Below, piece by piece: positions 54,534 to 55,301 of a stretch of 64,000 nt of DNA (position 1 is its first letter; every line of letters starts with the position of its first letter). The DNA lies in NCBI GenBank assembly GCA_014816185.1, contig GCA_014816185.1_4095.1. The stretch is one strand, 5' to 3'. The translations under genes were made by a program, and so were the position numbers. Under the pieces are notes generated by a model. That model saw only the letters and a program-made list of their open reading frames with translations, made no database searches and was not told the origin of the DNA. This DNA is from a phage.

Positions 54534-54728
54534 ATGACTGACAAAACATTTTATGATCGTATTATTGAAGACAAGGGAGTTTTTGATAAGGTAGTTTATG
54601 ACCTAGAACTTATGATCAAAGACGCACCGAACCCCCGTGTGCGAACCCAAGCAGAATTTGCAAAAACTTATCTTGTTCAAGTTCAAGCAATCTGTGAAGC
54701 AATTAAAAAACACAATGATAGTGCTTGA
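54534..54728 (+). CDS. hypothetical protein (64 aa)
   Basis: Complete small ORF; stop overlaps the -35 of the IF-3 promoter. Confidence 0.4.
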   Translation: MTDKTFYDRIIEDKGVFDKVVYDLELMIKDAPNPRVRTQAEFAKTYLVQVQAICEAIKKHNDSA

Positions 54729-54753
54729 CAGAACTAATGTTCTATCCTATAAT
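54725..54753 (+). promoter_or_regulatory. sigma70 consensus promoter upstream of IF-3 gene
   Basis: TTGACA 54725-54730, 17-nt spacer, TATAAT 54748-54753. Confidence 0.65.
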
Positions 54754-54797
54754 TACTATCGAACAAAACATTAAAATCATATTGGAGCTTTTATTAC

Positions 54798-55301
54798 ATG
54801 AAATCTATTATTGCCAATAACGAAATCACCGCAAAAACTGTACGTCTTGTTACGGAAGGTGCAAGTGAGGTCATGGCAATCTCTAAAGCACTTACTTTAG
54901 CAGAAAATCAAGGATTGGATTTGGTGGTTATTGGTGCAGGTGATGAACCTGCTGTCAAAATTACAGATCTTAACAAATACAAATATGAGTTGAAGCAAGC
55001 TGAAAAGGCTTCTCTTAAAAAACAACGACAAAATGCCGTGAGTATTAAAGAGATTCAATTCAACTTTGGTACACAAGAGCATGATTTGCAGATTAAAGCA
55101 AAAAGTGCTGAAAAATTCCTTGATGAAGGAAAACATGTACATATTGTAATGAAAACTTCAGGACGTGGAACTAATGCATCAGTAATTCAAGCAAATATTA
55201 ATGCAATGGAATCATTCGTTAATCGTTTGGGTAACGTTTCATATGTTCAAAAAGTCGAGTTCCAAGGTAAAAAGGTAACCTGTACTGTCAAAGTAAAATA
55301 A
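54798..55301 (+). CDS. infC: translation initiation factor IF-3 homologue
   Basis: 167 aa; near full-length alignment with E. coli IF3 ([10 protein letters not shown] ... GLDLVVIG ... VSIKEIQF ... [18 protein letters not shown]). Confidence 0.85.

Follow-up and report, generated by a model that had tools for sequence, protein, structure and literature searches.

Why would a phage that infects Escherichia coli carry its own version of a factor that helps the bacterial ribosome decide where to begin? Translation initiation factor 3 (IF3) sets the start codons and the tRNA that the bacterial ribosome accepts, and a virus that supplies its own could alter how initiation is governed in the cell it infects. 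The question is raised by one gene in a 64,000-nucleotide (nt) stretch of phage DNA (contig GCA_014816185.1_4095.1 of assembly GCA_014816185.1; hereafter the window), where an initial annotation made from the sequence alone had described a 167-amino-acid (aa) open reading frame (ORF) as a phage-encoded IF3 under a perfect consensus promoter. Our main reading, which we consider probable, is that this gene encodes the IF3 of an old RaK2-like lineage, that the protein is made through the host polymerase and that it acts on the host 30S subunit as IF3 does.

The protein, its relatives and its phage group

By sequence profile and predicted fold, the 167-aa protein is an IF3 homologue. Pfam places IF3_N (PF05198) on aa 7-71 with 58.9 bits (cutoff 26.9; E 5.8e-16) and IF3_C (PF00707) on aa 81-165 with 51.8 bits (cutoff 34.8; E 8e-14), and the NCBIfam equivalog for infC, TIGR00168, spans aa 6-154 with 110.4 bits against a cutoff of 60. 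The match over nearly the whole ORF that the initial annotation reported is thus borne out, and the profile search against IF3 families that it proposed gives a significant result. The solved IF3 chains of E. coli and Thermus match the phage protein with E about 1e-17, and alignment with the E. coli factor shows 38% identity over 120 aa. The gene and its parts are as follows.

54798..55301 (+), coding sequence of the IF3 homologue, 167 aa, with an ATG start and a TAA stop, from profile and fold matches
54816..55010 (+), IF3 N-terminal domain, aa 7-71 (PF05198), which holds R16, K54 and Y63
54969..55037 (+), Lys-rich helical linker, aa 58-80, from the model helix, composition and alignment
55038..55292 (+), IF3 C-terminal domain, aa 81-165 (PF00707)

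An AlphaFold2 model built with 23 homologues (mean predicted local distance difference test, pLDDT, 83) consists of an N-domain, a long helix (aa 58-79) and a C-domain of beta-alpha-beta-alpha-beta-beta topology, with a predicted secondary structure order of E-H-E-H-E-E over aa 83-166. When the model was compared with the PDB by Foldseek, the top match was a full-length, 30S-bound IF3 (5lmn_X; template-modeling (TM) score 0.76), and the isolated domains were recovered as well (C-domain 1tig, TMt 0.84; N-domains 1tif, TMt 0.76, and 6o6d, TMt 0.81), so that the predicted fold superposes on both IF3 domains, as it had been expected to do. The Lys-rich linker also stands as it had been described, with six Lys and one Arg in the 23 residues of aa 58-80; its net charge is +5 over 23 residues, compared with +6 over 21 in E. 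coli, and the overall charge layout is that of E. coli IF3, with an acidic N-domain, a basic linker and a basic C-domain. The ratio of nonsynonymous to synonymous substitution (dN/dS) against seven relatives is 0.07-0.18 and is low across both domains, so the gene is under strong purifying selection.

The phage itself can be placed from the DNA around the gene. A 1.5-kb stretch is 100% identical to Escherichia phages SHEFM2K, vB_Eco_slurp01, vB_EcoM_G17 and Sharanji and 99.0-99.9% identical to PBECO4 and 121Q, all six of which are Asteriusvirus jumbo myoviruses of 348-371 kb. The phage of the window is therefore an Asteriusvirus/RaK2-like jumbo coliphage and not T4, with a genomic G+C content of 34%. 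The initial annotation had measured the gene against the standard T4 set, a framing that fails given the 100% identity to Asteriusvirus jumbo phages over the 1.5 kb compared; absence from T4 is irrelevant here, as every relative of the RaK2-like clade examined has IF3 at the same place. Elsewhere, an indel separates the phage of the window from the otherwise near-identical Sharanji: the interval at about 40747..54798 of the window exceeds 136591..149865 of Sharanji by 777 nt.

The same position is occupied in nine RaK2-like relatives, whose proteins span 52-100% identity to that of the window. Identity is 99-100% to 121Q, PBECO4 and Sharanji and 52-72% to RaK2, Munch, GAP32, CBB and XbC2, and the gene belongs to an old IF3 lineage common to the RaK2-like jumbo phages (Asteriusvirus, Alcyoneusvirus, Mimasvirus and relatives). 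We considered a recent capture from the host and rejected it, given 38% identity to E. coli IF3 compared with 52-100% among the phages.

None of this makes the gene a discovery, and its treatment as a novelty cannot be kept: it is known, annotated and ordinary for the RaK2-like clade. PHROG 9787 ('translation initiation factor') aligns with the protein at E 6e-71 over 167 of 168 positions, tblastn recovers homologues from 95 of 50,697 phage records, and many of the matched GenBank records carry the IF-3 name (GAP32_313 and 121Q gene 47 among them), with some still labeled 'hypothetical protein'. An IF-3 of CBB with homologues in GAP32, 121Q, PBECO4 and RaK2 has been described (PMC5259590); IF1 and IF3 have been counted among genes that might let huge phages redirect translation (Al-Shayeb et al. 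2020, PMC7162821); Iyer et al. noted IF3 and ClpS in jumbo phages and suggested ribosome rescue or support of phage translation (PMC7824862); and the Sharanji paper discusses exactly this protein and states that its function in phages cannot be given (PMC11895373). That a phage IF3 could reprogram host translation initiation, as the initial annotation proposed, is a hypothesis that these papers had already raised. The gene goes unmentioned in the papers on the Asteriusvirus phages phAPEC6, JP4 and fEgEco12 and in a 2026 jumbo-phage review. Against this background, we regard a residue-level reading of the protein and a conserved unit of IF3, ClpS-like and KTSC genes, both set out below, as modest new leads.

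Promoter and predicted transcription unit

How would such a gene be switched on? Immediately upstream lies a promoter motif exactly as the initial annotation had described it, followed by a ribosome-binding site.

54725..54753 (+), sigma70-type promoter: -35 TTGACA at 54725..54730, a 17-nt spacer and -10 TATAAT at 54748..54753
54784..54787 (+), Shine-Dalgarno GGAG, 10 nt upstream of the IF3 ATG
16446, 16513, 31616, 40523, 50353, 54529 and 54725 (+), sites with at least 11 of 12 consensus positions in the sigma70 scan of the window

The promoter matches the consensus at 12 of 12 positions with a 17-base-pair (bp) spacer, ends 45 nt before the ATG and has a -35 hexamer that overlaps the TGA stop of the upstream 64-aa ORF. 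Exact TTGACA-N17-TATAAT occurs twice in the window, compared with 0.04 expected from 100 dinucleotide shuffles, and the motif is therefore no chance match. Nor is it the only perfect consensus promoter in the window, as had been claimed, because a second exact copy stands at 40523..40551 (+). This second copy lies inside ORF 40076..40747, whose homologue in Sharanji, gp315, is a hypothetical protein. The stop of that ORF follows after about 200 nt and the next ATG, at 40780, after about 230 nt, and the copy may be an internal promoter for downstream genes. Over the whole window, the sites with at least 11 of 12 matches number seven on the plus (coding) strand and none on the minus strand, where a first-order Markov model expects about 2.8 and about 2.3. 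One of them, TTGACA-17-TATGAT at 54529..54557 (+; 11 of 12), has a -35 that overlaps the ATG (54534) of the 64-aa ORF upstream of IF3, and a transcript from it would start inside that ORF.

The relatives offer a view of what is conserved. In ten relatives, we scanned the 130 nt that precede IF3 for the best sigma70 match, which reaches 12 of 12 in Ecwhy_1, Turkey5, Munch and CBB (with a 16-nt spacer in CBB), as in the window, 11 of 12 in Hallingskeid and 10 of 12 in RaK2 and GAP32. The -35 elements of these best matches lie 63-82 nt before the IF3 ATG, and the spacer sequences are unrelated among the relatives; conserved hexamers with unrelated spacers are the pattern that would be expected if the hexamers themselves were under selection. 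GGAG at a similar distance from the start codon is present in all 11 sequences, the window and the ten relatives together. A 5' untranslated region of about 38 nt is predicted from a putative transcription start. We also considered whether the conserved upstream sequence TGCTTGAC might be the MotA box of a T4-like middle promoter. We rejected this: its TGCTT is 19-20 bp away from the -10, compared with about 12 bp for MotA boxes in T4, and the -35 hexamer is complete.

Recognition of the IF3 promoter by the host polymerase is plausible, but the immediate-early expression that the initial annotation had attached to it is an inference that is not supported. A literature search turned up no transcript data on Asteriusvirus or RaK2-like phages, an RpoD-like sigma factor is encoded by the phages themselves, and the neighbors of the gene serve DNA metabolism.

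Downstream, the gene appears to head a longer unit.

55315..55860 (+), ClpS-like adaptor gene, 181 aa (Pfam ClpS, 24.7 bits; cutoff 23)
55932..56477 (+), KTSC-domain protein gene, 181 aa (PF13619, 51.9 bits), at a position conserved in relatives
56449..58038 (+), 529-aa ORF, without a match in the family scan
58038..58829 (+), 263-aa ORF, the last gene before the terminator
58834..58866 (+), intrinsic-terminator-like hairpin of 10 pairs followed by T8, the first good plus-strand terminator after the IF3 promoter

Because the terminator at 58834..58866 is followed by a promoter-like site and gyrB, we predict a single unit of about 4.1 kb that comprises IF3 as its first gene, the ClpS-like gene, the KTSC gene and the 529-aa and 263-aa ORFs. 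The promoter-like site, GAGACA-17-TACAAT with a TG extension, runs to 58894 and stands 35 nt before gyrB (58929), and 58834..58894 looks like a clean boundary between transcription units. The unit is embedded in a DNA-metabolism region, with nrdA, nrdB, folA, rnhA and a Dda/RecD-type helicase gene upstream and gyrB and gyrA downstream. Around IF3 itself, the order helicase, ORF of about 185 aa, ORF of about 64 aa, IF3, ClpS-like, KTSC and large ORF recurs in Ecwhy_1, Turkey5, RaK2, Hallingskeid, Munch, GAP32, CBB and XbC2. The 529-aa and 263-aa ORFs have homologues annotated as structural proteins in CBB and XbC2. The KTSC domain is lysyl-tRNA-synthetase C-terminal-like, and its homologues in the same two phages are likewise annotated as structural proteins.

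Start-codon contacts and possible roles on the host ribosome

If the main reading is right, the E. coli RNA polymerase holoenzyme would transcribe the IF3 unit before the late genes, and the phage IF3 would bind the host 30S subunit with its C-domain at the P site and h44, its linker on h23/h24 and its N-domain on the platform and the initiator-tRNA elbow. [quoted passage not shown] The infC gene of E. coli has an AUU start codon and is subject to repression by its product; because the phage start is ATG, not AUU, the phage protein would be made free of the IF3-dependent autorepression that limits the host factor. Inspection of start sites by the phage IF3 would probably differ, in one direction or the other, from that by the host factor, because the equivalents of R99 and R131 are absent.

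Several points weigh against this picture. The phages encode an RpoD-like sigma factor of their own, which might read the IF3 promoter, and the consulted part of the CBB Table S5 list, which jumps from Porf_189 to Porf_360, has no RpoD-like promoter before CBB_318. A literature search found no experimental study of any phage IF3, and the ribosome binding, timing and benefit of the protein are matters that we infer. Finally, three positions of the bacterial factor are changed (R99 to N89, Y107 to L97 and R131 to S121). R131 lies in RFRGR, a motif that is highly conserved in bacteria, and contacts mRNA positions +2U, +3G and +4 (PMC11775629), and canonical activity therefore cannot be assumed.

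To read the residues, the phage clade was aligned with E. coli IF3 (alignment A1, 19 clade sequences) and the positions of known role were mapped. Much of the ribosome- and tRNA-facing inventory is kept: R16 stands for E. coli R25, K54 for R66, Y63 for Y75, D96 for D106, K100 for K110, K102 and K106 for R112 and R116, and G122-R123 for G132-R133. R16, K54, Y63, K100 and R123 are invariant or conservatively replaced across the clade. In E. coli numbering, R25 and R66 lie at the initiator-tRNA elbow (PMC9723500), and Y75 stacks on h23 and affects fidelity (PMC5037330). The literature search gave nothing usable on residue-level phenotypes of R99, R112 and R116.

The basic C-domain and linker, which carry the anti-association activity, are also well conserved, as they would be in a protein that serves mainly to maintain the ribosome pool, by splitting or holding apart 70S and 100S ribosomes or by licensing 30S subunits (for example, through RbfA release), so that idle ribosomes are mobilized in slow-growing hosts. 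IF3 is described as taking part in the release of RbfA (PMC7145577), Sharanji also encodes an S30EA/HPF-like protein, and the suggestion of ribosome rescue or phage-translation support in PMC7824862 points the same way. However, such a role leaves the retention of the elbow residues R16, K54 and Y63 unexplained, and we think it quite improbable.

The changed residues concern the start codon itself.

55062..55064 (+), codon of N89, at the position of E. coli R99, from the alignment
55152..55166 (+), KTSGR, aa 119-123, in place of RFRGR (E. coli 129-133), with S121 at the R131 position, from the alignment

Among the 19 clade sequences, position 131 is S, T, A, V, I, N, E, Q or K and never R, and position 99 is N, T, S or A. 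In 30S complexes of Thermus, Arg91 hydrogen-bonds A+1 of the start codon and Arg123 contacts U+2 (PMC5037330); by alignment, Arg123 is E. coli R131, and Arg91 would be R99 from the alignment together with a one-residue numbering offset. This Arg is replaced in other systems too: in E. coli, mutation of R131 relaxes start-codon fidelity, with R131P favoring initiation from non-AUG codons, from leaderless mRNA and by a 3GC-altered initiator tRNA, while position 131 is P, F or Y in mycoplasmas and mitochondrial IF3 has KKGK (PMC11775629). Because natural IF3s without R131 exist in Mycoplasma and mitochondria, the loss of R131 and R99 does not exclude membership in the family; it marks a variant.

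We widened the sample to the 145 nearest 50%-identity representatives, out of 5,660 matches. Arg occupies position 131 in 68 of these and Lys in 48, so that 116 of the 145 are basic there; the non-basic residues cluster in the proteins closest to that of the phage. At position 99, Arg is found in 68. Because R99 is variable in this sample, it is a weaker marker than R131. The Arg-to-Lys changes are probably compositional, because the genome is 34% G+C and the phage IF3 has only four Arg.

These substitutions could belong to an IF3 of altered specificity, one that still binds 30S and prevents subunit joining but, having shed the arginines with which the codon-anticodon pair is inspected, tolerates starts that host IF3 would refuse (non-AUG codons, weak or absent Shine-Dalgarno sequences and leaderless messages), so that initiation shifts toward phage messages. 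KTSGR in place of RFRGR, the lack of Arg at 131 throughout the clade, the N, T, S or A at position 99, the start-codon contacts of Thermus Arg91 and Arg123, the R131P, mycoplasma and mitochondrial precedents and the clustering of non-basic residues near the phage protein all favor this idea. Yet a genome of 34% G+C favors the loss of Arg codons generally, R99 varies in the wider sample, and the phage, to judge from Sharanji, supplies no initiator tRNA for which a tolerant factor would be required. On balance, we hold relaxed fidelity to be a tentative possibility.

The search for a phage initiator tRNA went as follows. The window contains no tRNA genes. A co-adapted phage initiator tRNA was rejected on the basis of Sharanji, whose single CAU tRNA is 90 nt long and has a long arm, a paired 1-72 end, an anticodon stem of GCCGA/UCGGU and no 3GC; this rejection applies to the present phage, and CBB has three CAU tRNAs. 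The Sharanji gene (25374..25463, minus strand) is annotated as Met(CAT), has a type-II-like long variable arm and stands beside a tRNA-Ser with the unusual anticodon ACT. A long-arm tRNA that reads AUG would be odd, and the gene could be of the Ser/Leu type or a mis-call.

Substitutions at two positions that contact the start codon might also be expected of a decoy, an IF3 mimic that occupies the host 30S subunit and blocks host initiation, for which early ribosome-targeting jumbo-phage proteins offer a precedent (cited in PMC11895373). But phage mRNAs need the same 30S subunits, and the protein has the conservation pattern of a working IF3, with low dN/dS in both domains; we regard an inhibitory role as highly improbable.

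The start codon and the neighboring gene bring in a further alternative, in which a stringent, AUG-started phage IF3 represses the AUU-initiated infC and gradually replaces host IF3, perhaps with a ClpS-like adaptor that directs host factors to ClpAP. The ATG start is common to the window and all nine of the RaK2-like relatives fetched. The ClpS-like gene starts 13 nt after the IF3 stop, is probably co-transcribed with it and adjoins IF3 in all nine relatives; in Vibrio phage 2.275.O it is near-adjacent, with one gene between (the order there is IF3, bS21 (RpsU), a ClpS/L12-like gene and KTSC), and in Agrobacterium phage Atu_ph07 a Clp ATPase gene adjoins IF3. However, autoregulatory capture of this kind needs intact start-codon discrimination, which is doubtful given the loss of R131 and R99, and the ClpS-like protein barely passes its Pfam cutoff (24.7 against 23) and would have a partial N-degron pocket. 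It matches solved ClpS chains weakly, and in alignment with E. coli ClpS it keeps one Asp of the DD pair and loses the other Asp and His66, residues that we take to form the N-degron pocket; on our reading of the alignment, only part of that pocket would be retained. For these reasons, we rate the scheme as unlikely. The ClpS-like protein also has a 73-aa N-terminal extension. An IF3-Clp linkage recurs across RaK2-like phages, Vibrio phage 2.275.O and Atu_ph07.

Returning to the main reading of a phage IF3 that acts as IF3 does on host ribosomes, we can also frame a more specific version of it. A specialized IF3 without R99 and R131, started at AUG and co-transcribed with a ClpS-like protein and a KTSC RNA-binding protein, might displace host IF3 and loosen or retune the proofreading of start sites in favor of phage mRNAs; the relaxed IF3s of mitochondria and mycoplasmas would then have a counterpart among viruses. 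We offer this composite as a speculation that is rather more doubtful than not. The locus is a convenient test case, with E. coli K-12 as the host, a small gene, a clear promoter and two residues, N89 and S121, that can be mutated back. With the KTSGR motif and the conserved unit of IF3, ClpS-like and KTSC genes as leads, the 'translation takeover' hypothesis already in print can be put to a direct test in that host.

Comparison with known systems

The closest known counterparts are the members of PHROG 9787, such as 121Q gp47, the PBECO4 protein, Sharanji gp294 (WNN14575.1), Cronobacter phage GAP32_313 and Pectobacterium phage CBB_318. They are the same protein, without substantive difference, and these phages have in common the order Dda, two ORFs, IF3, ClpS and KTSC. 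Other translation genes of huge and jumbo phages (IF1, bS21, bS1, uS4, bL12, tRNAs and aminoacyl-tRNA synthetases) share with it the idea of redirecting host ribosomes (PMC7162821). They are different proteins, and none is known to act jointly with IF3; in Vibrio phage 2.275.O, the bS21 gene lies directly 3' of IF3.

Compared with bacterial IF3 (InfC; TIGR00168; E. coli P0A707; Thermus thermophilus PDB 5LMN), the phage protein is alike in its two domains, Lys-rich helical linker, fold and charge layout. It differs from E. coli IF3 in lacking the 9-residue N-terminal extension and in having a linker two residues longer, and its gene starts with ATG rather than the AUU of infC. The genetic setting differs as well: infC of bacteria sits in a thrS-infC-rpmI-rplT context, whereas the phage gene stands between a Dda-type helicase cluster and a ClpS-like gene.

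Mammalian mitochondrial IF3 (KKGK), Mycoplasma IF3 (P, F or Y) and the E. coli infC R131P mutant have likewise lost the Arg at the start-codon contact, and in those systems the loss is accompanied by an acceptance of non-AUG starts, of leaderless mRNA or of an unconventional initiator tRNA (PMC11775629). This likeness, seen here in sequence, is one of a single motif, and the phage protein has no specific kinship with them: by Foldseek, the phage model reaches TM 0.57-0.58 to mitochondrial IF3, compared with 0.76 to bacterial IF3, and the phage protein has no terminal extensions. With bacterial IF3, the phage factor has in common the equivalents of R25, Y75, D106, K110, G132 and R133.

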